Source of the DNA: Candidatus Poribacteria bacterium
GTDB taxonomy: Bacteria > Poribacteria > WGA-4E > GCA-2687025
Reading direction: 5' to 3'
Assembly: GCA_028818695.1 (NCBI GenBank)
Contig: JAPPNK010000026.1
Coordinates: forward strand, 135,164 to 199,163
Length of the DNA: 64,000 nt
Shown: positions 1,904 to 42,093 of the stretch, one piece after another
Position numbering within the stretch: position 1 is the stretch's first letter
How the letters are laid out: each line of letters begins with the position of its first letter
Notes under the pieces: model-generated
The model's database searches: none
Told to the model about the DNA's origin: nothing
Seen by the model: only the letters and a program-made list of their open reading frames with translations
Made by a program: the position numbers and the translations under genes

Positions 1904-2194
1904 TCACCTGGATCGATTCCATTTTTGTATTTGCTTTTCATACGGATCATGCGGTCCGACCCAGTACCACACGATTCTTTCGCCTTCGGCTGTTTCTTCC
2001 GCATATCCGAGAATTCTGTATTTTCGGTTGATCCATATAGAATACAGGTAGGGGGGGACTTGCTTAAAATGAAGGCTACGGCGCTGCGGATCAATTTCAA
2101 ACCGCTCCAGAGTTGTATCGGCCTTCTTTTGTAACTGCCTATCGAGACGGTTGTATTCCTTCCAGTAATCCGAATTCTGTCTTGATCGCATCAA
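1904..2194 (-). CDS. RelE/ParE-fold toxin-like small protein (cassette copy 0)
   Basis: 96 aa; aligns with the small proteins at 38873, 39803 and 40746 (FKQ...Y..W...YR..G..........W.W.GPHD.Y). Start overlaps the stop of the upstream TPR gene (ATGA); region is AT-richer than surroundings. Confidence 0.55.
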   Translation of the reverse strand: MMRSRQNSDYWKEYNRLDRQLQKKADTTLERFEIDPQRRSLHFKQVPPYLYSIWINRKYRILGYAEETAEGERIVWYWVGPHDPYEKQIQKWNRSR

Positions 2195-2988
2195 CCGTCC
2201 TTGGAAATGGGCGGCTCTGCTTCTTCAGCTCTGCGCTCTTTCTTCGCTTTTTCTGCCCATGCTTGCAGCATTGCAATCGATTCAGGGCTTTTCAGCGTTT
2301 TGTCCCATTTCTCTTCCCATTCCCGCGCATCTTCCATGATTGGCTCAAACTCTTCTCTGTAAAGATCTGGGTTGAGCATGATCGCCTCGTAGATGTCGTC
2401 ATAGTATTCGTCCTCGTCGCCTCTCGCTTGATGGACAAGTCCTTTTAGGAGAAACGCCTCGGCGCAATAGCTGTCCAAATCGGTCGCTTTTTCGAGGCTC
2501 TCAACCGCGGCGTCCAGATTGCCCGCGTAGGCATGCGCTTCGCCCAAGCGCAGATAGGTTTCCGCGACGGGGTTCAGTTTCGCCGACTTGGCAAGGTCTG
2601 CAACCGCTTTGTTCAGATCGGCTGAGCCGTCTCCTATCTTGATCAAGATCAACGCAACAATCCCGCGGCAGTAGTAGAGGCTCGCTGACGCGGCTTCCGC
2701 CTTTTTTCCGAGCTCTATTTGCTGCGCCAGCCGAATTGCCGCGTTGGAATGCTCAATCGCTTTTTTGTATTCGGATACGGCGTTGGATTTATTCTCCCGC
2801 AAAAAATCCGCTGTCGCCTGACAAAGGGCTGCCGTGACGCGTTTAATTTCTGAGTTGAACTCTGCGCGGTCGTCTGACGAAGAGCCGCTTGGCGTCAGAG
2901 CGCTGAACGGTTTTAGCAGCGCAATCGGCGCCTGTTCAATCAGATTCGATGAAAACAAACCGCTTTTCAATTCCATTAAATGCGGCAT
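2191..2988 (-). CDS. TPR-repeat protein with acidic C-terminal tail (upstream partner of the toxin-like gene)
   Basis: TPR-like helical repeats (AEAFLLKGLVHQARGDEDEYYDDIYEAIMLNPDLY resembles the TPR proteins at 38358, 39285 and 40226); acidic C-terminus; ATGA-coupled to the downstream small gene. Confidence 0.65.
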   Translation of the reverse strand: MPHLMELKSGLFSSNLIEQAPIALLKPFSALTPSGSSSDDRAEFNSEIKRVTAALCQATADFLRENKSNAVSEYKKAIEHSNAAIRLAQQIELGKKAEAASASLYYCRGIVALILIKIGDGSADLNKAVADLAKSAKLNPVAETYLRLGEAHAYAGNLDAAVESLEKATDLDSYCAEAFLLKGLVHQARGDEDEYYDDIYEAIMLNPDLYREEFEPIMEDAREWEEKWDKTLKSPESIAMLQAWAEKAKKERRAEEAEPPISKDG

Positions 2989-4319: not shown

Positions 4320-4413
4320 TCGTCGCCTGTCTGTGAGCGCGCTGTTGCCGACTGCTGATATTATTCCATGTCCGAAGCGTTTTTACAATGGAAACTTATG
4401 GGAGGCGGCGCAT

Positions 4414-6057
4414 TCAGACCCGTTGAACGGCGGGGAGCGAGACGGTGAAGCGGCAGCCTCCCCCGCCGACGGCGCTGACCTCAATCGTTCCGTTGTGATC
4501 CTCCACGATGCGCTTCGTCAGGGCGAGGCCGATGCCTGCCCCTTTGCGCTTCGTTGTGTAAAGCGGGTCGAAGATGCGCCGGCGCAGCTCTGGAGAGACG
4601 CCGGGACCGTTGTCTTGCACATACGCCTCCACAACGCGCATGGACCCGCCCGGCGTCCGCTCAACTGCGCGCACCGAGACGCGCAGCTCGCCCCCGTCCG
4701 GCATGGCGTCGATCGCATTGCTGATGAGGTTCAGAAAAACCTGCGTGATCTGATCGGCGTCCGCTAAGACGCGCGGAGCGCTCTTGGAAAAATCGCGCCG
4801 TATCTGCGCGCCCGATTTCTGCGCCTCATTCTTCATCAGAACCAAAGCCCTCTCCGCCGCCTCCACCAGATCGATCTCCTGAAACATATCCGGCGATGAA
4901 CGGCCGTAGCGCAGCTGTTTCTCCACGACGCGGTTCAGCCGCTCAACCTCTTCAATAATGATGGAGGCGTATTGAAGCATGTCTTCAGCCGATTTATTCG
5001 AGAGCGCAGGCTCCCGTCCGCCGTTCATCCGCTTGACGCCGATCTCAATCAGCTGCGCAGCGCCGCGTATGCCTCCAAGCGGGTTGCGTATCTCGTGCGC
5101 CAAGCTTTGCGACATCTCTCCTAGAGCGGCGAGACGTTCATGGAGCGCCGCTTCCTCAATCATCTGTTGTATTTTCAGCGCCTGCGAGAAGACGGAGGCG
5201 ACGATCGTCAAGAAATTCAGGTCGTCGCGCAGGGTTCGCTCGTCCATCGGCGCTCTGTCGACGCTCAACACGCCCGCCGTTTCGCCTTCCATGACGATCG
5301 GCAGGCAGAGGAAAGCGACGGAGCGTTCCTCAGCCGCCGCTTCATGAAGCGCGATCGGTTTGTCGCCTAGGTTCGGCGCCGCCATCGGCTGCCCCGTTTT
5401 CAGCGTCTGTCGATAGATATTCTCGCCCAGGCGGTACTGTCCGCGTTCGATGTCGGCGTCGGTAAGCCCGTAGGCGCATTTGAGCGTGAACCGCTCCGCC
5501 GCGCGGTCGTAGAGCAGCAGCTGTCCGCGGTACATGTTCAGCTGCTCCGACAGGCGGCGCATGACATCTTCAAACAGGCTCTCCATGTCGAAGGTGCGGG
5601 ATATTTCGCGGGCAATTTCAAACAAAGCGGAGCTTTCGCTCAGATGCTTTTGCGCTTCGGCGTTCGCTTCGTCAAGCCGTTTCAGCCGCGTTTGGACGTT
5701 CTTGCGCCAAAGAAGGAGTCGGCTGAGAGCGGCGATCGTCATTCCGCCGACGCAGGCGAACATGCCGCATACCATGGCGATGGCGGGGATATTCGGACGG
5801 AAGAGCGCATAGGCGAAAAGCGACGCAACCCCGGCGCCCCATACCGCCCACGGACGGCCGCGCAGAACGGCGGCAACCAGCGCGAGAATGTAGAGGTGCG
5901 ACAGGGCGGCCGCCGCCGCGAGCGGGTTCAGACGGTCCCCCGCCGCGTATATGCATAGGCTGGACAGGCAGATCCCGACGACGAGAACGATGGTCAGCGC
6001 AACGGGTTGACGCCTCCGCCGCCGTTCGCCGGCATCGTTCTCAGACGAGCTGTCCAT
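4414..6057 (-). CDS. membrane-bound sensor histidine kinase (TM region + GAF + HisKA + HATPase_c)
   Basis: N-terminal hydrophobic segments; H-box HEIRNPL; G2 box GAGIGLAL; GAF-like middle region. Confidence 0.85.
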   Translation of the reverse strand: MDSSSENDAGERRRRRQPVALTIVLVVGICLSSLCIYAAGDRLNPLAAAAALSHLYILALVAAVLRGRPWAVWGAGVASLFAYALFRPNIPAIAMVCGMFACVGGMTIAALSRLLLWRKNVQTRLKRLDEANAEAQKHLSESSALFEIAREISRTFDMESLFEDVMRRLSEQLNMYRGQLLLYDRAAERFTLKCAYGLTDADIERGQYRLGENIYRQTLKTGQPMAAPNLGDKPIALHEAAAEERSVAFLCLPIVMEGETAGVLSVDRAPMDERTLRDDLNFLTIVASVFSQALKIQQMIEEAALHERLAALGEMSQSLAHEIRNPLGGIRGAAQLIEIGVKRMNGGREPALSNKSAEDMLQYASIIIEEVERLNRVVEKQLRYGRSSPDMFQEIDLVEAAERALVLMKNEAQKSGAQIRRDFSKSAPRVLADADQITQVFLNLISNAIDAMPDGGELRVSVRAVERTPGGSMRVVEAYVQDNGPGVSPELRRRIFDPLYTTKRKGAGIGLALTKRIVEDHNGTIEVSAVGGGGCRFTVSLPAVQRV

Positions 6058-12433: not shown

Positions 12434-12700
12434 CTGACCTTTAAGGTTTCGTTGGGCATGTCGGTATGCGAACGCGGACAGCGTCTGTTGGACTCTGGAT
12501 TCCCGCTTTCGCGGGAATGGCGATTTGGAATGCGGAGGCTGTCTGGGAGAACTCTGGATTCCCGCTTTCGCGGGAATGGCGATTTGGAATGCGGAGGCTG
12601 TCTGGGAGAACTCTGGATTCCCGCTTTCGCGGGAATGACGCTCTGATTGACGGAGCCTTTTCCCATCCATAAAGGCTTTGTTCGTTCAACGGCTCCATCT
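12434..12700. repeat. degenerate MITE copy carrying three tandem 59-bp core sub-repeats
   Basis: Left end CTGACCTTTAAGGTTTCGTTGGGCATG resembles the MITE terminus. 3x tandem GGATTCCCGCTTTCGCGGGAATGGCGATTTGGAATGCGGAGGCTGTCTGGGAGAACTCT. Right end degenerate. Sits immediately upstream of the UPF0182 start. Confidence 0.7.
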
Positions 12701-29875: not shown

Positions 29876-30042
29876 CTGACCTTAGCGCTTTAGTTGGGAC
29901 ATGTCGACATGCGAACGCGGACGTCGTCTGTTGGACTCTGGATTCCCGCTTTCGCGGGAATGACGGCCTGGTTGGCGGCGCCTGTTTCCCATAAATAGAG
30001 CGATCATTCGTTCAAATGTCCCAACTTTACGTATGAGGTCGG
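29876..30042. mobile_element. MITE-like element copy with target-site duplication
   Basis: Inverted orientation relative to copy 1; flanked by direct GGACGGG / GGACGGG. The paralogous site upstream of WD40-c (about 31196-31210) has a single GGACGGG directly followed by TTTCCGCCCC (empty site). Confidence 0.75.
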
Positions 30043-32368: not shown

Positions 32369-33181
32369 ATGAGTCCGATACAGGTCGTCATCAACGGAGC
32401 CGCCGGAAAAATGGGGCGAATGATCGCCGCAGGCGTCCATAGCCAGGACGATATGCAGGTTGCCGCCGGCGTAGAGGCGCCCGGCTCCCCGCATCTCGGT
32501 CAAGACGCGGGAGAACTGGCGGGAGTCGGCTTCCTTGAGGCGCCCGTCGTCGAGTCGCTCGAAACGGTCATCGACAAGGCGGACGTTCTGATCGAGTTCA
32601 CGCGCCCCGGACCGACGCTCCAGCATCTCCGCGCCGCCGCGCGGACGCAAACGCCGTTTGTGATTGCAACCACCGGCTTTGAAGAGGAAGAGCTGGCTGA
32701 AATCAGCGAACTGGCGCAGCAGACGCCGACCGTCATGGCGCCGAATTTCAGCGTCGGGGTGAACACGCTCATCAAGGCGGTCGCCCTCGTCGCCGAGACG
32801 CTGGGAGACGCCTACGACATTGAGATTGTGGAGGCGCACCACAACGAAAAGGTGGACGCGCCCAGCGGAACCGCCGTCCGTCTGGCGGATGTCGCCGCGG
32901 AGGCGGTCGGGCGTTCGATGCGCAGTGTCGGCGTCTATGGGCGGCATGGGATCGTCGGCGCGCGGAAGCCGAAGGAGATCGGGGTCCACGCGGTGCGCGG
33001 CGGAGACATTGTCGGCGACCACACGGTCATGTTTGCGGGGAAGGGGGAACGGATTGAGCTGGTACACCGCTCGCAAAGCCGAGAAGCGTTTGCGAGCGGC
33101 GCCATCCGAGCGGCGCGCTGGATCGTCTCGGCGCCGAAGGGGCTGCATAGCTTCGATGACGTTCTCTTCGGACAAGATTAA
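32369..33181 (+). CDS. dapB: 4-hydroxy-tetrahydrodipicolinate reductase
   Basis: N-terminal NGAAGKMGR NAD(P) site; EIVEAHHNEKVDAPSGTA signature of DapB; 270 aa. Confidence 0.9.
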   Translation: MSPIQVVINGAAGKMGRMIAAGVHSQDDMQVAAGVEAPGSPHLGQDAGELAGVGFLEAPVVESLETVIDKADVLIEFTRPGPTLQHLRAAARTQTPFVIATTGFEEEELAEISELAQQTPTVMAPNFSVGVNTLIKAVALVAETLGDAYDIEIVEAHHNEKVDAPSGTAVRLADVAAEAVGRSMRSVGVYGRHGIVGARKPKEIGVHAVRGGDIVGDHTVMFAGKGERIELVHRSQSREAFASGAIRAARWIVSAPKGLHSFDDVLFGQD

Positions 33182-33231
33182 GGCTATACTCGGCGGCAAG
33201 ACGACGCGCCGACACAACGGAGAATTCCCGC

Positions 33232-36200
33232 ATGCAGATTTCCAACGACAGCGACCGCGCCATCGCCGAGGCTCTGGACGAACTAAATGAGATGAGTTCT
33301 CAAGCGACAGACGGCAAGTGGCTGGAAGAGATCACCGTAGACGCAGGTCCGCACATCAGGGACTGGGACGTCTTGGAATGCTGGAGCTGGGCGGATTGGC
33401 CCGATCGGTACCGTATCTTTTCCGTCGATTCCAAGACGGATCTTGGCATCGACGTTGTGGCGAAGCGTCGCAGCGATGGCAAGCATATCGCCGTCCAATG
33501 CAAGTCGCGTCGGTTGGATGAACATGGCAACGGCGCTCCCGTCTTGAAACACGAGATGGACAAGTTTATCAGCGCGTCGGCGAATCCGTTTTGGGCGGAG
33601 CGGTGGCTCGTCACGAACGGCAGCATTCCGCAAAGCCCGCAGCTCCAATCCGCCCTTAAATTGCAGAGCGATTCGGCTAAGGTTAAGTGGGTCAACATCG
33701 CTTCCGCCCTTCAACAGCAACAAAACGCCGCTGTCGAATACAGTGACCCATGCCCGCATTGCGAACCGAACCCAGACGGCGAGTTTCGCATTCAAACGAA
33801 AAACTGCATGCAGCGGGAAGCGGTCAAAAACAGCGTCCGCATTCTGAAAGAGCATGAGCAGTCGGACAGCGGCGGACTGCCAATCGGTCAAGCGCGCGGC
33901 AGGATCATCCTGCCCTGCGGAACCGGCAAAACCCGCATCTCTCTGCGGATTGTGGAAAAGCTGACAGCGCAGGGCGAGCTCTCCATCGTGCTTTGCCCGT
34001 CCATCGCCCTCGTCGCGCAAATTCGGCGGGAGTATCTGCAGCATAATAACGTTAAAATAAGAGCATTGGCGGTCTGTTCTGATAAAACGGCGGGATACAA
34101 CCCGAAAAAAGAGGACGCTGTCGTCAACAGCGACGACCCCACCATTGACCGAAGCAACGTGAGCGCGGCGGAAGTGAAAGGGATGGTGACGACCGATCCG
34201 AACGAGATCGCCGAATGGATCCAAGACCCGATGAGCGAAGGAGCCGTCAACGTCATCTTCGGAACCTATCAGAGCGGACGCCGCATCGCCGAGGCGCTGC
34301 GCCAAACGGAGACTACGGCAAAGGTACTCATTGCGGACGAAGCGCATCGAACCGCCGGCTTCAGGCAAACAAAAGGCAAGAACGCGTCTAAAGTGGAAGA
34401 GAATATACGAAGCTTCACCCTCTGCCATGACAACGACAAATTCCCCGCAACATACCGCGTCTATCAAACGGCGACGCCGAAACAGTACAGCGGAGCGAAA
34501 CAAATCAGTAAAAATGCCGACTACATCATCCGCTCCATGGACGATGAAACCGTCTTTGGGGTTGAGCTGTACCGCAAATCCTACGTCGAAGCGGTCGAGA
34601 ACGAATGGCTGTCCGACTACCGAATCATCGCGCTGGCGATCAACAACCATGACGCGTACGAACAAGCGAACGCGCTAGCGAAAAAGACGCTAAGCAAGAA
34701 ACTGAATACGAACAACTACATACGCGGACTCGCGTTTGCGCTGGCGATGGGCGGAGCGGCGCAAGACGCAGGCGAGGACGATATCAAACTCGAATCATGC
34801 ATCGCTTTCATGAATACGGTCGACAAATCGAAAAACATGGCGCAAGACCTGCAAACGGACGCTGTCAAGCAGTGGGTTCAGAAATGGCTCAACGAAAACG
34901 GACAGCAAGATCGAAAAGCGGCTGATTACAGCCTCGAACATCTGGACGCCTCAAGCAACGTCACTCAACGCGACAACGGCAAAATAAAATTGGCGGACGC
35001 CGACGAAACAGCCCCGCATGGAATCCTCAATGTCGGCATCTTCGGCGAAGGAACCGACTCGCCGTCTCTCAGCGCCGTCGCCTTTCTAGAGCCGCGCAAA
35101 AGTCCCATTGACGTCGTTCAAGCGGTCGGAAGAGCGATGCGTACGGCGCCCGGCAAAAGTTACGGATACGTCATCTGCCCCATTGTCATACCCGCCAACG
35201 CCGACCCAGAACAGTGGCTCAGCACAAGCGAAAAGGAGGAAGGATGGGAAGAACTGGGGCAAATCCTGCTCGCGCTGCGGGCGCACGACAATCGGATCGA
35301 AGATGAACTGGAAAAGTTCCTAAAACTGTACATACCGCCTCCGCCGGAGATTCAGAAAACGATCGTCGCCGTCGCGCGCCAAGAAGGCAAGCGCATCCAA
35401 TATCGCGAACATGAAGGTAAACCGGGAGACGCCGAGAGAGCGCTGCAACGCGCCCTGGACGGGGAAAGCTATGAAGCGGCCGGACTGACGCCGCTCAAAG
35501 AAGAGTCAACGAACGAATTCAGCGGCGTTAGAGAGAAACCTGCCCTGCCGAAACCAAGCGAACCGATCCAGCATACCGCCATCATCGCCGGAAAGAAAAA
35601 CAGCGACGGCGGAACCGAAATGCGCATCGCCTCCGTTCAAAGAGACAAACCGAAGGCGAACGAACTCGTCGGGAAGGTGAATTTCGACAAGTCGAAGAAA
35701 AAAGCGAAAGACATGATCAATAAGGGCGACGGCGTCCGCCTGCCGCTGCCCAAACCTAGAACGCGAAGAACCGAAAAAGAACGACGGGAACTGTCCGGTA
35801 AGTTGTTCCTAGAACGGAGCGGACTGGAAGAAAGCGGAAAAGCGATCTGCATGAACCTGCTGAAAAAGTCCGGACTCTGCAGAAACCGAGTCGAAAGAGA
35901 CCTGAACATCCTAGAAGCAAGCGTCAACGAAGCGGCGCATCATCTGCGAGACGAAAAGATGGGCGCCGTACTCGACAAGCATTTCGGACTGGACAGGCTC
36001 AAAAAAACGAGCGGCAAGCAGCCGGCGGACGGAAGTACGACCGCCGCATTGCTGATGATGAACGCTGCCATGCTCCATCAGCGTATCTGCAACGGCGGCT
36101 GGTTCAAAGGCGTCAAATCGCTGAGCGAAATCAAAAACGACGCAAGAGTTATACAGCGAATCTGCAGAGAATGGGAACGCATCCTGCGGGAAGATTTTCG

Positions 36201-38250
36201 ACCCGTCTTGGAACCGGCGCTGGAGACGATCTACGCCATCGAAGAAACCGGCAAAACAAACGGACTGGAACGCGCCCTGCGCCACCTCGCTGCCGAAGCG
36301 GAACGCATCGCCGAAACCTACGCCGACATGGGAGCCGACCATGCGGGACCGCTCTTCAACAAAGTGATGGGTAATCAGGCGAGCGACGGCGCCTTCTTCA
36401 CAAGACCGCCGGCGGCGTCCATTGCCGCCCGGCTCACACTGGACGCATGCGAAGAAGCAGACGGCGAAACGGACTGGACAGACCCCGATACGTGGAAAGC
36501 GCATAAAACGATAGACCTCGCATGCGGAAGCGGAACGCTCCTGACCGCCATGCTGACCGACATGAAACGAAGGGCGAAAGAGCAAGGCGCCGACAAATCG
36601 CAAATCAGCGCGCTGCAGAAACTGGCGGTCGAAGAGACGATCAAAGGACTCGACATCAACCCCGTATCGCTACAACTGGCGGCGGCGCAGCTGACGGCGG
36701 GAAACCAGAAGATCAGCTACCGAAAGATGGGGCTTTATCAAATGCCCTACGGACCTCAGCCGAACGGACAAGCAGCGTCGGGAACGCTGGAGCTGCTGTC
36801 GCAAAAGGCGATCCTCCCGCGTGTAGAGCTGGGCATACCCGACCATCTGATCGAATCGGAAGCGGTGTGGAATCAGCATGACGACGCCGAGCTGGAAGAC
36901 GCTGTGGACGCCGCTAAAAACTGCCGCATTGTCATCATGAATCCGCCGTTTAGCAGTCGAGAGAAGATGGGCGAGAAGTTCATGAAGGAGGATCAAAAAG
37001 TGCTTCGGGCAAGATCCGACATTATGGCTAAACTTCTGATTGAAATAGATCGTGACATGGATGGATTCGTCAGTAAGTCCACAATAGCCCCCACTTTTGT
37101 TGCATTGGCTGATTACTGTTTGAATTCTGATTCCGCTGCGCTGACTATGGTACATCCTACAATAGCTCTGAGCAACACATCAGGATTGAAAGAACGAATC
37201 GTTCTCGCTCAACGCTATCATATACACACTGTGGTTACCTGCCATCAGCCAGGCCAAATGAACATGAGTCATAACATGAGTCTCAACGAAAGCATTATCA
37301 TCGCTATGCGACATAAAGAGAGGGGGTTTCCTCCTACAAGGTTCATCAACTTAGATCGAATGCCGTTTCAAGAAAGCGATGTGGAAGACCTGTATCAGTG
37401 CCTTGTTGAATGCGGCGATGGGTCAATTGCCAACGGATGGGGCGAGGTGTCCTACTGGCCGGCAAGCCGTATAAAAGCGGGCGATTGGACCCCCGCCGTC
37501 TGGCGGTCGCCTGAATTGGCGGAGGCGGCATATACATATGCTAACATCAATGAAATGCAATCTATCATAGATACTCTTGACCAGTCCCCTACAGCCACAG
37601 GCCCAGTGCTTCGCAGCTCTTTCAAGAGCACAACACCCGGCCAAAAAGGCAGTTTTCCGATATTGAAATCGAAAGGCGCCGACGCACAAAAACGGATTCA
37701 AGGCGAGCCAGATGAGTATTGGATCTCCAAAAAACAAAGCAAGGACGCCACACGAAAGATGCTGGCTAAAGTTGGCTATCTATTGATTACCGCAGGTCAA
37801 GACACCTCCACGGGGCGTCTCACAGCAGTTGCATGCGATACGAAATATGTAGGCAACGGCTGGATGCCGTTAACAGGGCTGTCTTTGGATGAAGCGAAAG
37901 CTCTAGCAGTGTTCATCAACTCGACGCCGGGGCGGCTGCAGTTGATGCGCAATCCTGGTATGAAACTGGCATTTCCTCAATACAGCGTGGCGGAAATCTC
38001 TAACATTCGCATCCCCGACATCCAAGACGCCCGCGTCTGCCGCATCTTAGCGGACTGCTGGGAAGCGACGAAAGAGATGTTGGTTCCGCAGTTCCGCGAC
38101 GGCGAATGCGAGGTTCGCGTCTTATGGGATGAGGCTGTCGCCGAAGCGATGGGCTGGGATCGGGCTGAGTTGGCTCGCCTGCGCCGCCTGCTTCACCAGG
38201 AGCCGCATGTTCGGGGGCTGGGCTATAACCAGTATGCCGACGAAGCGTAG
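33232..38250 (+). CDS. Type ISP-like single-polypeptide restriction-modification enzyme (Mrr-like nuclease + SF2 helicase-like ATPase + gamma-class N6-adenine methyltransferase + C-terminal TRD)
   Basis: Mrr_cat-like D...GIDVVAKRRSDGKHIAVQCK (about 33445-33504). Walker A LPCGTGKTRI (about 33911). DEAH box LIADEAHRT (about 34336). Motif VI QAVGRAMR (about 35118). MTase motif I DLACGSGTLL (about 36513) and motif IV NPPF (about 36937). 1672 aa, consistent with LlaGI/LlaBIII-type architecture. Confidence 0.7.
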   Translation: MQISNDSDRAIAEALDELNEMSSQATDGKWLEEITVDAGPHIRDWDVLECWSWADWPDRYRIFSVDSKTDLGIDVVAKRRSDGKHIAVQCKSRRLDEHGNGAPVLKHEMDKFISASANPFWAERWLVTNGSIPQSPQLQSALKLQSDSAKVKWVNIASALQQQQNAAVEYSDPCPHCEPNPDGEFRIQTKNCMQREAVKNSVRILKEHEQSDSGGLPIGQARGRIILPCGTGKTRISLRIVEKLTAQGELSIVLCPSIALVAQIRREYLQHNNVKIRALAVCSDKTAGYNPKKEDAVVNSDDPTIDRSNVSAAEVKGMVTTDPNEIAEWIQDPMSEGAVNVIFGTYQSGRRIAEALRQTETTAKVLIADEAHRTAGFRQTKGKNASKVEENIRSFTLCHDNDKFPATYRVYQTATPKQYSGAKQISKNADYIIRSMDDETVFGVELYRKSYVEAVENEWLSDYRIIALAINNHDAYEQANALAKKTLSKKLNTNNYIRGLAFALAMGGAAQDAGEDDIKLESCIAFMNTVDKSKNMAQDLQTDAVKQWVQKWLNENGQQDRKAADYSLEHLDASSNVTQRDNGKIKLADADETAPHGILNVGIFGEGTDSPSLSAVAFLEPRKSPIDVVQAVGRAMRTAPGKSYGYVICPIVIPANADPEQWLSTSEKEEGWEELGQILLALRAHDNRIEDELEKFLKLYIPPPPEIQKTIVAVARQEGKRIQYREHEGKPGDAERALQRALDGESYEAAGLTPLKEESTNEFSGVREKPALPKPSEPIQHTAIIAGKKNSDGGTEMRIASVQRDKPKANELVGKVNFDKSKKKAKDMINKGDGVRLPLPKPRTRRTEKERRELSGKLFLERSGLEESGKAICMNLLKKSGLCRNRVERDLNILEASVNEAAHHLRDEKMGAVLDKHFGLDRLKKTSGKQPADGSTTAALLMMNAAMLHQRICNGGWFKGVKSLSEIKNDARVIQRICREWERILREDFRPVLEPALETIYAIEETGKTNGLERALRHLAAEAERIAETYADMGADHAGPLFNKVMGNQASDGAFFTRPPAASIAARLTLDACEEADGETDWTDPDTWKAHKTIDLACGSGTLLTAMLTDMKRRAKEQGADKSQISALQKLAVEETIKGLDINPVSLQLAAAQLTAGNQKISYRKMGLYQMPYGPQPNGQAASGTLELLSQKAILPRVELGIPDHLIESEAVWNQHDDAELEDAVDAAKNCRIVIMNPPFSSREKMGEKFMKEDQKVLRARSDIMAKLLIEIDRDMDGFVSKSTIAPTFVALADYCLNSDSAALTMVHPTIALSNTSGLKERIVLAQRYHIHTVVTCHQPGQMNMSHNMSLNESIIIAMRHKERGFPPTRFINLDRMPFQESDVEDLYQCLVECGDGSIANGWGEVSYWPASRIKAGDWTPAVWRSPELAEAAYTYANINEMQSIIDTLDQSPTATGPVLRSSFKSTTPGQKGSFPILKSKGADAQKRIQGEPDEYWISKKQSKDATRKMLAKVGYLLITAGQDTSTGRLTAVACDTKYVGNGWMPLTGLSLDEAKALAVFINSTPGRLQLMRNPGMKLAFPQYSVAEISNIRIPDIQDARVCRILADCWEATKEMLVPQFRDGECEVRVLWDEAVAEAMGWDRAELARLRRLLHQEPHVRGLGYNQYADEA

Positions 38251-38357
38251 GACGGATAGGCGGCGGGCGCAGCGGTTTCCCAAACCGCGCCCTTGACAAC
38301 GCATCGGCGCGTCTGGCACACTTTCGTCAGCGTCGGCGGTTGAATGGAGAGAGTAAA

Positions 38358-38873
38358 ATGGCGGCTGCGGCATCCAAGGGCGCAGAATTCTATCTCAAAC
38401 GCGGTCGGCTCTACGCAGACAAGGGCAAACTAGAGCGCGCCGCTGCGGAATACACAAAGGCGATAGAGCTGTATCCCGACGATCAGAAGGCGTATCGTCT
38501 CCGCGCAGAGGCGTACCGCGCAGCGGGCGACCTTGACCAGGCTCTTGCGGACATCAACAAAGCGGTTGATCTGGACATCTATGACGCCCAGGCGTTCATG
38601 CTCCGCGGGCTGATCCATAAAGACAGGGGCGAGATGGCTGATTACGAGGAGGAGTTTCGCGTCGCCGTTCTGCTTGACGGCGAACTGGTGAACCACGAAA
38701 CGCATGGGGCGGAGTTTGCGCGTATCAAGAAGGCTGACGAGGAAGAGGAGGCGGAGTGGGACGAACTTGTCAGCCAGCCGGAAGCGGAGGCGCTGTTTGA
38801 GGAATGGGAAGCGGAGGCGCTGGAGGAGCGTCAAGCGGGGAAAACGAAGCCTCTGGATCCTGAGGCTCTATAA
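38358..38873 (+). CDS. TPR protein with acidic C-terminal tail (cassette copy 1)
   Basis: ATG with GGAGAG SD (track ORF starts at upstream TTG 38340). TPR-like repeats. Acidic tail EEEEAEWDEL...EEWEAEALEE. Stop overlaps the start of the next gene (TAATG). Confidence 0.7.
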   Translation: MAAAASKGAEFYLKRGRLYADKGKLERAAAEYTKAIELYPDDQKAYRLRAEAYRAAGDLDQALADINKAVDLDIYDAQAFMLRGLIHKDRGEMADYEEEFRVAVLLDGELVNHETHGAEFARIKKADEEEEAEWDELVSQPEAEALFEEWEAEALEERQAGKTKPLDPEAL

Positions 38874-39154
38874 TGCGCTCGCGCACAACTTCGCGGTTTC
38901 GAAAGCAATTCAGGCTTCTTCCAAAGGAAGTCCGGCAACGGGCAAAGGAGGCATACCGCCTATTTGAAACGAACCCCCGCCATCCCGCCTTACGATTTAA
39001 AAAATTACGCGGCAGCAGCCGCAGATATTCGGTTCGTTTTTATAAAAAATACCGCGCTCTAGCCAGAAAAACGGATGAGGGCGACCTCGAATGGTATTCT
39101 ATTGGATCGCATGCGACATACGACCAAGATATAGAGAACAAGAAGCTGGGATAG
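38873..39154 (+). CDS. RelE/ParE-fold toxin-like small protein (copy 1, divergent/shorter)
   Basis: 93 aa; FRLLPKEVRQRAKEAYRLFETNPRHPALRFKKL...YSVR...YRA family pattern. C-terminus diverges from copies 2 and 3 (no WFWIGPHDEY). Confidence 0.55.
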   Translation: MRSRTTSRFRKQFRLLPKEVRQRAKEAYRLFETNPRHPALRFKKLRGSSRRYSVRFYKKYRALARKTDEGDLEWYSIGSHATYDQDIENKKLG

Positions 39155-39284
39155 CGCCGCATGGTTTCCGCGCCCCCTTCTCGTTCTTCCCGCCTTGCGA
39201 TAAAATATGCGGGAATCCAGATTATGCGCCGCCCCGTATCAACTTGACGCGCATACCAGCAGACGGTTAAATGGAGAAAGTACA

Positions 39285-39800
39285 ATGGCGGCTGCGGCAT
39301 CCAAGGACGCAGAATTCTATCTCAAACGCGGTCGGCTCTACGCCGACAAGGGCAAATTAGAGCGCGCCGCTGCGGAATACACGAAGGCGATAGAGCTGTA
39401 TCCCGACTATCAGAAGGCGTATCGTCTCCGCGCAGAGGCGTACCGCACAGCGGGCGACCTTGACAGCGCCCTTGACGACATCAATAAGGCGGTTGATCTG
39501 GACCTCTACGATGCGCAGGCGTTCATGCTCCGCGGATTGATTCATAAAGACAGGGGCGAGATTGAGGACTACGAAGAAGAGTTTCGCGTCGCCGTTCTGC
39601 TTGACGGCGATTTGGTGAGCCATGAAACGCATGGGGAGGAGTTTGCGCGTATCCTGAAAGCGTATGAAGAATCGGAGGCAATATGGGAAGAACTATTCAG
39701 TCGCCCCGAGTCGGACGCATTCTTATTAAAGATGGCGGAAGAGGCGCTGGAGGATCACAGGCAGGGCAAAACGAAGCCGCTTAAGCTAGAAGATCTATAG
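39285..39800 (+). CDS. TPR protein with acidic C-terminal tail (cassette copy 2)
   Basis: 5' 200+ nt nearly identical to copies 1 and 3; GGAGAAAG SD. Confidence 0.7.
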   Translation: MAAAASKDAEFYLKRGRLYADKGKLERAAAEYTKAIELYPDYQKAYRLRAEAYRTAGDLDSALDDINKAVDLDLYDAQAFMLRGLIHKDRGEIEDYEEEFRVAVLLDGDLVSHETHGEEFARILKAYEESEAIWEELFSRPESDAFLLKMAEEALEDHRQGKTKPLKLEDL

Positions 39801-39802
39801 GC

Positions 39803-40135
39803 ATGCGCTCGTTTACATGCCCGCGCTTCTGGAGGGAGTTCCGCGCGCTTCCAGAAGATGTGCAAAGACAGGCGCGCAAATCCTATTCATATTTCAAAGA
39901 CAATCCCCGCCATCCAAGCCTCCGTTTTAAACAGATATCGAGAATTGTCGGCTTATGGTCTGCCAGCGTTGATCAAAATTACCGCGCGATGGGCGCGATA
40001 TCGGGTGAGAACGAGATCATGTGGTTCTGGATCGGGCCGCATGACGAATATGAGCGTAAGATCAACGATCCGAATATCGCGCGATCAGTTGAAATGGCGC
40101 GGAAAAATTTAGCCGACCGCCGCTCTAAACGCTGA
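39803..40135 (+). CDS. RelE/ParE-fold toxin-like small protein (copy 2)
   Basis: 110 aa; FRALPEDVQRQARKSY.YFKDNPRHPSLRFKQI...YRAMG...EIMWFWIGPHDEY, resembling the RelE/ParE C-terminal beta-sheet region ending IG.H..Y. Confidence 0.6.
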   Translation: MRSFTCPRFWREFRALPEDVQRQARKSYSYFKDNPRHPSLRFKQISRIVGLWSASVDQNYRAMGAISGENEIMWFWIGPHDEYERKINDPNIARSVEMARKNLADRRSKR

Positions 40136-40225
40136 ACCGAAACAGCGCCGCGCCTCTCATTTGACAGCGCATAGGCGCGTCTGGCACACTTTAGGCAGCG
40201 TCGGCGGTTGAATGGAGAGTGTAAA

Positions 40226-40729
40226 ATGGCGGTTTCGGCATCCAAGGACGCAGAATTCTATCTCAAACGCGGTCGGCTCTATGCAGACAAGGGCAAACTA
40301 GAGCGCGCCGCTGCGCAATACACGAAGGCGATAGAGCTGTATCCCGACGATCAGAAGGCGTATCGTCTCCGCGCAGAGGCGTACCGCGCAGCGGGCGACC
40401 TTGACCGCGCCCTTGCGGACATCAATAAGGCGGTTGATCTGGACCTCTACGACGCGCAGGCGTTCATGCTCCGCGGGCTGATCTATAAAGACAGGGGCGA
40501 GATTGAGGACTACGAAGAAGAGTTTCGCGTCGCCGTCCTGCTTGACGGCGAGCTGGTGAACCACGAAACGCATGGGGAGGAGTTTGCGCGCATCCTGAAA
40601 GCTGACGAGGAAGAGGAGGCGAAATGGGAAGAGACGTTCAAGCTGCCCGAATCGCAAATCTTCCTAAAAAAGATGGCGGAAGAAGCGCTGGAGGCGCATC
40701 GTCAGGGCAAAACGAAGCCGCTAAATTAG
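40226..40729 (+). CDS. TPR protein with acidic C-terminal tail (cassette copy 3)
   Basis: As copies 1 and 2; conserved leader upstream (40170-40225). Confidence 0.7.
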   Translation: MAVSASKDAEFYLKRGRLYADKGKLERAAAQYTKAIELYPDDQKAYRLRAEAYRAAGDLDRALADINKAVDLDLYDAQAFMLRGLIYKDRGEIEDYEEEFRVAVLLDGELVNHETHGEEFARILKADEEEEAKWEETFKLPESQIFLKKMAEEALEAHRQGKTKPLN

Positions 40730-40745
40730 AATATCTGATGTAAGC

Positions 40746-41078
40746 ATGCGCTCGTTTATATGCCCGCGATTCGTGAAGGAGTACCGCGCGCTTCCAAAGG
40801 CCGTCCGTATCAAGGCTCGCAAAGCCTACTCTTTCTTCAAGATAAATCCGAGATACCCAAGCCTCCACTTTAAGCCTGTAATCAGCAGCATCGGGCTGTA
40901 TTCCGCCCGAGCGGATAAGAATTACAGGGCGTTGGGCGCGGTATCAAGTGAGAACGAGATCATGTGGTTCTGGATCGGCCCGCATGACGAATACATGCGC
41001 AAGATCAACGATCCAAATATCGTCAGGTCTGTTGAAATGGCGCGGGAACGTCTAGCCGACCGCCGCCCTAAACGCTAA
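40746..41078 (+). CDS. RelE/ParE-fold toxin-like small protein (copy 3)
   Basis: 110 aa; about 75% identical to copy 2; same WFWIGPHDEY C-terminal motif. Confidence 0.6.
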   Translation: MRSFICPRFVKEYRALPKAVRIKARKAYSFFKINPRYPSLHFKPVISSIGLYSARADKNYRALGAVSSENEIMWFWIGPHDEYMRKINDPNIVRSVEMARERLADRRPKR

Positions 41079-42093
41079 ACCGAAATAGCATCGCGTCCCC
41101 GTCCTGAACGACGTACTCTTTCCCTTCCAGCCGAAGCTTCCCGCTGGAGCGCAGTTTGGAGAACGACCCCGCCTCGGCGAGCTCGTCCCAGCGGCATGTC
41201 TCTGCGCGGATGAACCCTTTCGCCATGTCCGTATGCACCGACTCCGCCGCCTCTAGAGCCGTCGCCCCGCGCGGCAGAAGGCGCATGCGCGTCTCTTCCT
41301 CGTTCGCCGTGAAAAAGGCGCACACCTCCAGCGCCTCATACGCCGCCTCCGTCAACCGCTTCATTGCCGATTCTTCAGGCAAACCCAGATCGACTCGGAA
41401 CGCAAGAGCCTCTTCCTCCGGCAGCTGCGTCAGCTCCGCCTCCAGCTCCGCGCACACCTCAACGCAAACCCCTCCGCCCGGCGCATCCGCTTGCCGTTCC
41501 GCCTCCTCGCCCGCGTTTATAACGGCGATGAGCGGCTTCATCGACAAAAACTGAAACCCGCGCGTGAGCCGCTCCTCTTCGGCAGACGTCTTGAGTTCGC
41601 GCAGCGGACGCCCCGCCTCCAGCGCCTCCTGAAAACGCAGCAGAACGTCCCGCTCTTTCAGCTGCTCAGGGTCTTTCTTGACCTGTATCTCCCGTTTCAG
41701 GCTTACGAAGCGGTTCTCGATGATCTGCAGGTCTGCTAGGACAAACTCATCCTCCAGCGTCTGCGCGTCCCTTTTCGGATCAATCGACCCGGCGATATGC
41801 GGCGCGGCATCGTTCTCAAACGCGCGCAGCGTATGCGCGAGCGCGTCCGCTGTCCGCGCGTCAGGATTAACATACCCCTTCGACGGCGGCGCCAGATCGA
41901 CAAACGTGAAGGCGGCGCGGTGAACCTTCGGCGCGCCGACCCCCTCCGCAATCGCCGAAAGCCGCGGATCGTCGATGGGAACGGCGGCTGCGCGGTTTTG
42001 GCGCCGCCCGTCCGGCGGGCTAAACGATCCGGTGAGCGCATTAAAGAGCGTCGTTTTACCTGAAAAAGGCAGTCCAACCAGAGCGATTTCCAT
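41068..42093 (-). CDS. ychF: YchF/Obg-family P-loop GTPase/ATPase (ribosome-binding ATPase-like) with C-terminal TGS-like domain
   Basis: GLPFSGKTTLFNALT G1 motif; C-terminal GFIRAE segment typical of YchF. Confidence 0.7.
   Translation of the reverse strand: MEIALVGLPFSGKTTLFNALTGSFSPPDGRRQNRAAAVPIDDPRLSAIAEGVGAPKVHRAAFTFVDLAPPSKGYVNPDARTADALAHTLRAFENDAAPHIAGSIDPKRDAQTLEDEFVLADLQIIENRFVSLKREIQVKKDPEQLKERDVLLRFQEALEAGRPLRELKTSAEEERLTRGFQFLSMKPLIAVINAGEEAERQADAPGGGVCVEVCAELEAELTQLPEEEALAFRVDLGLPEESAMKRLTEAAYEALEVCAFFTANEEETRMRLLPRGATALEAAESVHTDMAKGFIRAETCRWDELAEAGSFSKLRSSGKLRLEGKEYVVQDGDAMLFRFSV

Follow-up and report, generated by a model that had tools for sequence, protein, structure and literature searches.

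The 64,000-nucleotide (nt) stretch analysed here (hereafter, the window) belongs to an uncultured, sponge-associated Candidatus Poribacteria bacterium (assembly GCA_028818695.1, contig JAPPNK010000026.1, forward-strand positions 135,164 to 199,163) and carries four two-gene cassettes, each pairing a tetratricopeptide repeat (TPR) protein with a small basic protein. We consider it quite probable that these are four type II toxin-antitoxin (TA) modules from an uncharacterised PF24732 branch of the RelE/ParE superfamily, with TPR-headed antitoxins. By profile alignment, the last ~56 residues of the TPR proteins appear to be the canonical antitoxin of PF24732 toxins, and the TPR head appears to replace only the first ~18 residues of the normal antitoxin. 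Given this homology, the cassettes can be read as canonical type II TA modules in which the antitoxin N-terminus has been swapped for TPRs.

Four cassettes of a TPR protein and a small basic protein

All four pairs of a TPR protein and a basic protein of 93-110 amino acids (aa), first proposed from inspection of the letters alone (the sequence-only reading), are present both in the open reading frame (ORF) listing and in the raw sequence. TPR-gene starts were placed at the most plausible ATGs, each of which has GGAGAG ahead of it. Cassettes 1-3 form a co-oriented tandem array spanning 38358-41078, and cassette 4 lies inverted at 1904-2988. Their genes are as follows:

38358-38873, forward strand: TPR gene of cassette 1, 171 aa; three TPRs, acidic linker and type-A tail (SQPEAEALFEEWEAEALEERQAGKTKPLDPEAL)
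38873-39154, forward strand: toxin gene of cassette 1, 93 aa; short S subtype (EWYSIGSHATY); PF24732 E 1.4e-9
39285-39800, forward strand: TPR gene of cassette 2, 171 aa; type-B tail (SRPESDAFLLKMAEEALEDHRQGKTKPLKLEDL)
39803-40135, forward strand: toxin gene of cassette 2, 110 aa; of the long L subtype, with WFWIGPHDEY and a C-terminal helix of 23 aa
40226-40729, forward strand: TPR gene of cassette 3, 167 aa; type-B' tail that stops 4 residues early (KTKPLN, then the stop)
40746-41078, forward strand: toxin gene of cassette 3, 110 aa; L subtype, sharing 71% identity with the toxin of cassette 2
2191-2988, reverse strand: TPR gene of cassette 4, 265 aa; longer, different N-terminal region and diverged tail (WDKTLKSPESIAMLQAWAEKAKKERRAEEAEPPISKDG)
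1904-2191, reverse strand: toxin gene of cassette 4, 95 aa counted from the ATG; PF24732 E 1.6e-5

The TPR proteins all match Pfam TPR models (E 1e-8 to 1e-11). That of cassette 4 is related to the others through its tail (tblastn E 0.004) and is 39% identical to them in the head; similar 254-267-aa TPR forms are P0152, P0159, P0166 and P0234. Net charge over the C-terminal 80 aa lies between -11 and -20 for the TPR proteins (-20 in cassette 1), and the small proteins have isoelectric points of 9.7-10.8 in all four cassettes. The cassettes therefore have the layout of type II TA systems: neighbouring genes in one orientation that abut closely or overlap, with an acidic protein encoded upstream and a basic one downstream.

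The stop/start overlap initially described for the cassettes holds, at 1 nt, for cassettes 1 (TAATG) and 4 (TGATG); the TPR stop and the toxin start are separated by a 2-nt spacer in cassette 2 and by 16 nt in cassette 3. The longer spacer of cassette 3 exists because its antitoxin ends 4 codons early, and the protein is consequently without the nearly invariant C-terminal residues (window 40718-40745). The same truncated 167-aa antitoxin occurs in an independent assembly (P0141, locus L090), which indicates a real allele and not an error.

The small proteins as probable RelE/ParE-fold toxins

On the PF24732 (ParE_like) model, the small proteins score 38.3, 26.8, 24.6 and 25.3 bits, all four passing the gathering threshold of 24.4 bits. 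PF24732 alone matches: the Pfam models for RelE, YoeB and YafQ gave no match, nor did PF05016. An AlphaFold model computed from 28 homologues (predicted local distance difference test, pLDDT, 93.1; predicted template modelling score, pTM, 0.84) has an N-terminal helical hairpin on a 3-4-stranded antiparallel sheet, the fold of the RelE/ParE superfamily. A Foldseek search of the PDB with this model gave 24 matches at E<=1e-3, all from the RelE/YoeB/YafQ/HigB group and with E. coli YoeB first. ParE structures are more distant matches than RelE and YoeB, and the protein does not classify as ParE proper. The RelE/ParE fold that had been predicted for the small proteins, with a structural comparison suggested as its check, is thus borne out by PF24732, the AlphaFold model and Foldseek. 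A PDB sequence search with the toxin profile returned nothing significant.

Three residues, R61, H80 and Y83, are invariant in the 28 family sequences, fall within the motif YRALG...WIGPHDEY and are kept in all four window toxins. The catalytic residues of YoeB are E46, R65, H83 and Y84, and those of RelE are R61, R81 and Y87; hhalign puts the toxin R61 opposite YoeB R65 at 9.6% probability. From the predicted structure, we favour a RelE/ParE-fold toxin that would stand nearer to the mRNA interferases RelE, YoeB and YafQ than to the ParE gyrase poisons. Based on the fold and on the invariant Arg61, His80 and Tyr83, it would most likely act as a ribosome-dependent mRNA endonuclease of the YoeB/RelE kind and not poison gyrase.

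The toxin of cassette 1 had been singled out as short and divergent. It is indeed only 93 aa long but is not degenerate: toxins with 79-89% identity to it occur at three related loci, and together they make up a subtype of their own. The L toxins end in a basic C-terminal helix of ~23 aa (NDPNIARSVEMARKNLADRRSKR, residues 88-110; 40066-40135 and 41009-41078). Canonical members of the family, at 83-91 aa, have no such helix, and it was seen only in Poribacteria toxins accompanied by type-B tails. It may touch the acidic linker or the TPR head as an additional point of contact.

The antitoxin tail and its canonical 74-aa counterpart

When one genome for each GTDB species was scanned with the toxin alignment, 485 loci spread over many phyla were confirmed, and partners were analysed at the best 80 of these 485 (L005-L084). 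At ~75 of the 80 loci, the toxin is preceded by an ORF for a helical, acidic protein that carries the conserved antitoxin tail and ends 2 nt before the toxin gene or overlaps it. Around 30 of these upstream partners are exactly 74 aa long (for example MTQLLQKAFERAAKLPQEEQDKFARFLLAELEAERQWAELFSRSESEDLLERLADEALTAHRTGRTQPLDIEEL, or L013 2774-2998), and the ORFs longer than 74 aa are upstream alternative starts. The N-terminus of the canonical 74-aa antitoxin is an 18-aa helix, MTxLLQxAFExAxxLPxE. What follows it is shared with the window: hhalign aligns TPR-protein residues 116-171 with canonical residues 19-74 at 99% probability (E 7.9e-18, 50% identity), and single 74-aa proteins share 59-67% identity with the tail of the TPR proteins. 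The sequence-only reading, which had proposed a TPR antitoxin with an unusual acidic tail, is therefore upheld in part: tail homology places the TPR protein in the antitoxin role, but the acidic tail is nothing new and would be the canonical antitoxin of the family.

A word-indexed search with the 56-aa tail found three proteins only; an exhaustive HMMER run with the tail profile against 1.84 billion representatives recovered 506 clusters (50% identity), nearly all of 55-110 aa. No Pfam or NCBIfam family was found for the tails in isolation, for the canonical 74-aa antitoxins or for the tail of the PIN-type TPR proteins described below, and the 74-aa partner is listed as a "hypothetical protein" in the sources. 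Searches for a DNA-binding domain (ribbon-helix-helix, RHH; Phd; helix-turn-helix, HTH; or AbrB) found none in the TPR proteins, where Pfam assigns the N-terminal part to TPRs only, and none in the 74-aa partner. A PDB sequence search with the antitoxin profile revealed no significant similarity to any chain. P0335, a 163-aa protein within the 90% cluster of toxin P0015 (89-aa toxins, 74-aa proteins), may represent read-through or fusion of an antitoxin and a toxin (74 + 89 aa).

In the AlphaFold model of the cassette 2 antitoxin (pLDDT 92), six TPR helices at residues 2-106 and a short cap are followed by an acidic helix (117-139), a second helix (141-159) and a disordered end (160-171). Such disorder at the end of the monomer tail is as expected of a region that folds upon binding. 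In Foldseek comparisons, the TPR head superposes on the 3-TPR modules CTPR3, SGT, Hip and RPAP3. We also considered a Hsp70/Hsp90-type carboxylate clamp that would bind the protein's own C-terminal ...LEDL, and have set the idea aside, as manual inspection showed no conservation of the clamp residues (Lys in TPR position 5 and Asn in position 9).

Tails track toxins among related Poribacteria

Close relatives of the L toxin and of the TPR protein were found in a handful of related assemblies only. Their loci (L001-L004 and L085-L090) encode TPR-tail proteins of 165 to ~417 aa. The long, TPR-bearing matches to the tail profile are P0146, P0159, P0166, P0167, P0169, P0189 and P0234, and every one that was traced sits on Poribacteria assemblies ERZ21830300 or ERZ25069580. 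As far as found by sequence, the TPR-headed fusion thus seems restricted to this Poribacteria lineage.

A search for the pairing in other genomes, as the sequence-only reading had suggested, yielded at least 12 intact pairs of a TPR-tail gene and a PF24732-type toxin gene in related Poribacteria assemblies, the pairing persisting where toxin identity has fallen to 40-43%. Type-A tails (SQPEAxxLFEEWEAEALEE...) occur with S toxins of 91-93 aa in 4/4 pairs, and types B and B' (PESxxFLxKMAEEALExHRQGKTKPLKLEDL) with L toxins of 109-111 aa in 5/5. S toxins that are 79-89% identical to the cassette 1 toxin always trail type-A tails (L001, L002, L089). Tail subtype hence tracks toxin subtype in all nine typed pairs, which is expected if the tail is the toxin-binding element. 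The pairs of L087, L088 and window cassette 4 are more divergent, their toxins having 35-43% identity to the L toxin of the window.

Several intact toxin genes behind TPR-tail genes are unannotated (L001 4942-5217, L087 3381-3704, L088 3275-3526 and L089 2998-3261), and because of these missed calls the neighbouring TPR genes look like orphans in public predictions. Other pairs have decayed: L085 holds an orphan, L086 an orphan with a recombination scar, and in L003 a TPR-tail gene (4395-4928) is followed by 17 toxin residues and then by an FRG gene.

A shared 5' module also heads VapC/PIN cassettes

The leaders of 11 cassette starts from five sources (the window, L001, L002, L003 and L086) were aligned. 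Their consensus is TTGACA-N18-CATACT...GGTTGAATGGAGAG, with a conserved block (CTTGACAGCGCATAGGCGCGTCGGGCATACTTTCGTCAGCGTCGGCGGTTGAATGGAGAGAGTAAAATGGCGGC...) followed by the leader and Shine-Dalgarno sequence. In the window, it is laid out as follows:

38293-38357, forward strand: 5' module of cassette 1; TTGACA (38293-38298), 18-nt spacer, CACACT (38317-38322), leader and Shine-Dalgarno GGAGAG (38346-38351)
40151-40225, forward strand: 5' module of cassette 3; TTGACA (40151-40156), leader and Shine-Dalgarno

A leader of ~75 bp had been described as common to all three tandem copies; this is the case for cassettes 1 and 3 and for the relatives, but cassette 2 retains only the last ~25 nt. The conserved TTGACA-N18-CATACT element is a putative promoter. 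It came from the leader alignment alone, and a strict consensus promoter scan found none.

The same block and N-terminal TPR sequence (MAxxASKDAEFYLKRGRLYADKGKLERA...) also head proteins of 127-361 aa with a different tail (...SAAGSWKGLIDGEKLIREIYEARKNSLRAYKP). TPR proteins with the SAAGSWKGLIDGEKLIREIYEARKNSLRAYKP tail are encoded directly upstream of a 136-aa VapC-like PIN toxin at L001 2292-3395 and L086 3412-4911. Further PIN-type TPR loci, with this tail or a 155-aa domain, are L086 5579-6268 and L002 612-1953, and P0151 (295 aa), with yet a further C-terminal region, precedes a 154-aa PIN protein. Antitoxin-position genes of at least two toxin superfamilies (RelE/ParE-like and VapC/PIN) thus have the TPR head in common. 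The occurrence of one head before S, L and PIN toxins suggests a lineage-specific accessory domain that has been combined with at least three toxin-specific neutralising regions. On the 3' side of a PIN-type TPR gene, L086 6270-6340 reads, between two stops, PMRYLIDTEYRQGKTKPLKLEDL, in which the first residues of a PIN toxin run into the last part of a ParE-type antitoxin tail, to all appearance the scar of a deletion or of recombination between cassettes.

Separate histories of heads, tails and toxins

To place the copies in time, we estimated synonymous (dS) and non-synonymous (dN) divergence by the Nei-Gojobori method for each part of the cassettes:

Between window copies: head dS 0.12-0.30 (dN ~0.04); tail 0.8 to saturated; toxin 0.82 to saturated
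Window copy 1 against L001 type A: head dS 0.21; tail 0.11; toxin 0.12
Window copy 1 against L089: head dS 1.96; tail 0.13; toxin 0.16
Window copy 2 against L001 type B: head dS 0.11; tail 0.18; toxin 1.07

The shared 5' coding sequence noted in the tandem copies is confirmed as a 300-nt direct repeat in three copies with 92-93% identity, the first ~150 coding nt being 96-100% identical. The tandem toxins share only 37-71% amino-acid identity, and those of cassettes 2 and 3 differ by a dS of 0.82 and a dN of 0.19. Comparison with the relatives separates the parts further. Copy 1 and L001 type A look like simple vertical descent; copy 1 and L089 appear to have different heads on the same tail and toxin; and copy 2 and L001 type B appear to share the antitoxin with a different toxin behind it. 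The discordant dS values across modules indicate that heads, tails and toxins have had separate histories, the heads having been homogenised among paralogues. With a dN/dS of ~0.2-0.3 in head, tail and toxin (~0.15-0.3 in heads), the genes are under purifying selection, which points to functional genes. Very recent tandem amplification is ruled out by a tail and toxin dS of 0.8 or saturated. Of the two origins that the sequence-only reading had offered, amplification thus falls away, and gene conversion is retained and extended to the exchange of modules.

We regard it as extremely improbable that faulty assembly or the very recent multiplication of one cassette produced the three tandem copies. 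Near-identical 5' repeats of the kind described above can confuse assemblers, but the 3' halves of the cassettes are strongly diverged, equivalent tandem arrays exist in related genomes, and the independent assembly L090 carries a copy-2-like and a copy-3-like cassette in the same order beside ychF. The L090 array shows that the tandem arrangement, whose authenticity had been flagged as needing verification, is not an assembly artefact. At L090 3059-3575, the copy-2-like antitoxin is split by an apparent frameshift into ORFs of 67 aa and 113 aa in front of an intact toxin, which could reflect either an error in sequencing or decay of the antitoxin.

Genomic setting

The tandem array lies in the following surroundings:

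32369-33181, forward strand: dapB, left border of the island; window ORF, with DapB_N/DapB_C in the syntenic L001
33232-38250, forward strand: restriction-modification (RM) gene directly upstream of cassette 1; Mrr-like nuclease, ResIII/helicase and N6 methyltransferase in one polypeptide, Type ISP-like
41068-42093, reverse strand: ychF (DUF933/YchF GTPase), right border of the island, convergent with cassette 3

The 3' ends of the cassette 3 toxin gene and of ychF overlap by 11 nt (41068-41078). The interval from dapB to ychF (32369-42093) varies within the lineage in its content of RM, TIR_2, FRG and FRG-TPR genes, IS1595 transposase and numbers of TA cassettes. Type IIG enzymes are present in L003 and L086; FRG-TPR, FRG and TIR genes in L001, L003 and L090; and L090 has TIR and FRG genes where the window has the RM gene. 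To judge from gene content, the interval is a variable defence island.

The domains of the RM enzyme are seen in Pfam, and it matches the PADLOC model REase_MTase_IIG at E 1e-95; it is the only neighbour to match a PADLOC system model. In PADLOC-DB v2, neither the toxins nor the cassette 4 TPR protein have a match, and a PrimPol match of the cassette 2 TPR protein (PDLC01101, E 3.3e-6, residues 6-87) is driven by its TPRs. No SecB-like third gene, the criterion for a toxin-antitoxin-chaperone (TAC) system, was found between or after the cassettes in the window or in the loci of relatives.

Beside the inverted cassette 4, the miniature inverted-repeat transposable element (MITE) that had been noticed there is real. 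Imperfect inverted repeats of 31 nt lie at 1679-1709 and 1822-1852 in this MITE-like or repetitive extragenic palindromic (REP)-like element (1679-1852), which occurs also at 29889-30029. Its hairpin core, GTCATTCCCGCGAAAGCGGGAATC, is found six times in the window against 0 expected (1760, 12498, 12557, 12616, 21104 and 29941). Three of these copies fall in a perfect 59-nt tandem repeat of 2.5 copies at 12492-12637. A CRISPR array was ruled out at the latter position, as the "spacers" are identical in each unit.

TPR proteins have been reported as enriched among the eukaryote-like proteins of sponge symbionts (PMC4850255). This enrichment, together with the orphan TPR-tail genes of some relatives, would fit eukaryote-like host-interaction proteins of a sponge symbiont, with the small genes as unrelated or degenerate hitch-hikers. 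We find this very improbable: hundreds of genomes that are not from symbionts encode a toxin partner homologous to the tail, the paired genes abut closely or overlap, tail types go with toxin types, the toxins are under purifying selection, and the setting is a defence island. Nor was an N-terminal secretion signal seen, by sequence inspection only.

Possible working of the cassettes

If the cassettes are TA modules, the tail, consisting of two helices and a disordered C-terminal peptide, would presumably wrap and block the cognate toxin, which would cleave mRNA on the ribosome once free to act. The TPR array takes the place of the antitoxin N-terminus, with three repeats in the tandem cassettes and 2 to ~10 in relatives. 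Since the antitoxin is without a DNA-binding domain, the head is not an operator-binding module. It may instead be a protein-binding module that ties the stability or availability of the antitoxin to a cellular or phage-derived ligand, and transcription would proceed from the conserved promoter without antitoxin autoregulation. The putative promoter, leader and TPR head would together make up a 5' module, subject to exchange or homogenisation between cassettes, that also heads the VapC/PIN cassettes, and each pair of tail and toxin would be an old, co-adapted 3' module. Abortive-infection defence or stabilisation of the island is the most probable role for such cassettes.

Alternatively, the head could need no external ligand. 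As a built-in chaperone or stabiliser of a labile tail, or a replacement dimerisation element, it would be the cis equivalent of the SecB-like chaperone of TAC systems. We hold this to be doubtful, while giving it some weight: the head stands in for the N-terminal ~18 aa of the canonical antitoxin, the last TPR and the acidic linker are the best conserved parts of otherwise divergent heads, the heads are under purifying selection (dN/dS ~0.15-0.3), and their fold is like that of the 3-TPR co-chaperone modules SGT, Hip and RPAP3. On the other hand, a repeat number ranging from 2 to ~10 and the swapping of whole heads on an unchanged tail and toxin (L089) exceed a purely structural need; these features favour the reading of the head as a sensor of a trigger over that of a stabiliser. 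In its boldest form, which seems to us unlikely, one TPR head would be a sensor shared by S, L and VapC toxins on their cognate tails, so that a single phage or sponge-host protein would trigger a multi-toxin abortive response, and the 5' module would also act as a recombination handle.

Some points weigh against our reading of the cassettes as functional TA modules with ligand-responsive antitoxins. The orphan TPR-tail genes and toxin remnants of L085, L086 and L003 mean that some cassettes are decaying. Purifying selection on the heads within the island, and their homogenisation, argue against an arms-race sensor, and are equally compatible with binding of a conserved host factor or with self-association. 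The sequence alignment to YoeB is weak (the hhalign probability of 9.6%), and equivalence of the catalytic residues is tentative. Finally, we found no experimental data or solved structure for either PF24732 or the 74-aa partner family, so the terms "toxin" and "antitoxin" rest on homology, gene order and fold.

Comparison with known systems

Like RelBE, YefM-YoeB and DinJ-YafQ, the cassettes are antitoxin-first, two-gene operons with a basic toxin of ~90-110 aa and an acidic antitoxin whose C-terminal toxin-binding region is disordered when alone, and the invariant Arg, His and Tyr tentatively occupy positions that resemble R65, H83 and Y84 of YoeB. They differ in having TPRs instead of RHH, Phd or HTH domains, and in the 23-aa C-terminal helix that is added to the L toxins. 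PaaA2 of E. coli O157 PaaA2-ParE2 is a small helical antitoxin without a DNA-binding domain, and the canonical 74-aa partner is likewise small, helical and free of such a domain. However, relative to PaaA2-ParE2 and ParDE, ParE is structurally more distant from the toxins described here, PF05016 is not matched, and no paaR2-like third gene lies beside the cassettes.

The nearest counterparts are the canonical PF24732 modules of Chloroflexota, Latescibacterota, Acidobacteriota, Planctomycetota, Poribacteria and others, which hold homologues of both genes. Their toxins are 45-58% identical to those of the window, their antitoxins 50-67% identical over residues 19-74, and the 2-nt or overlapping junction is alike; they have an 18-aa N-terminal helix where the window proteins and their relatives have ~115 to 360 aa of TPRs.

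CapRel is a precedent for a sensor-type antitoxin. At the level of concept, CapRel and the TAC systems (bioRxiv 10.1101/2024.02.24.581848) show how an additional component beside the antitoxin can make release of the toxin depend on a phage protein or a chaperone; in contrast to them, the cassettes have no SecB-like third gene and no fused toxin. The Panacea domain (PanA) shows that one antitoxin domain can be combined with many toxin families (PMC8832971; NetFlax, PMC10440598). The TPR head is similar in that it accompanies unrelated toxins (the RelE/ParE-like S and L toxins and VapC/PIN), but it would not be the neutralising part, which is predicted to lie in the toxin-specific tails, and it is known from a single lineage. 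There is no mention of TPR in the NetFlax study (PMC10440598), and a literature search on TPR antitoxins, PF24732, and Poribacteria TA systems with TPRs found nothing relevant.

Significance

These results identify the cognate antitoxin of a large toxin family, PF24732 (485 loci; 506 antitoxin clusters), and the 74-aa antitoxin family merits a family model of its own. We did not find a TPR array in place of an antitoxin N-terminus described before, and its modular exchange with RelE/ParE-like and VapC toxins makes a natural system for the role of antitoxin domains that do not bind DNA. Gene callers routinely overlook the small toxin genes beside TPR genes, and some of the TPR "eukaryote-like proteins" of sponge symbionts may be TA components. 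If one TPR head does serve several toxins as a common sensor, this would be a new organising principle for TA networks: the 5' module would let the lineage re-pair sensors and toxins, and some of the "eukaryote-like" TPR proteins of sponge symbionts would be immune components.

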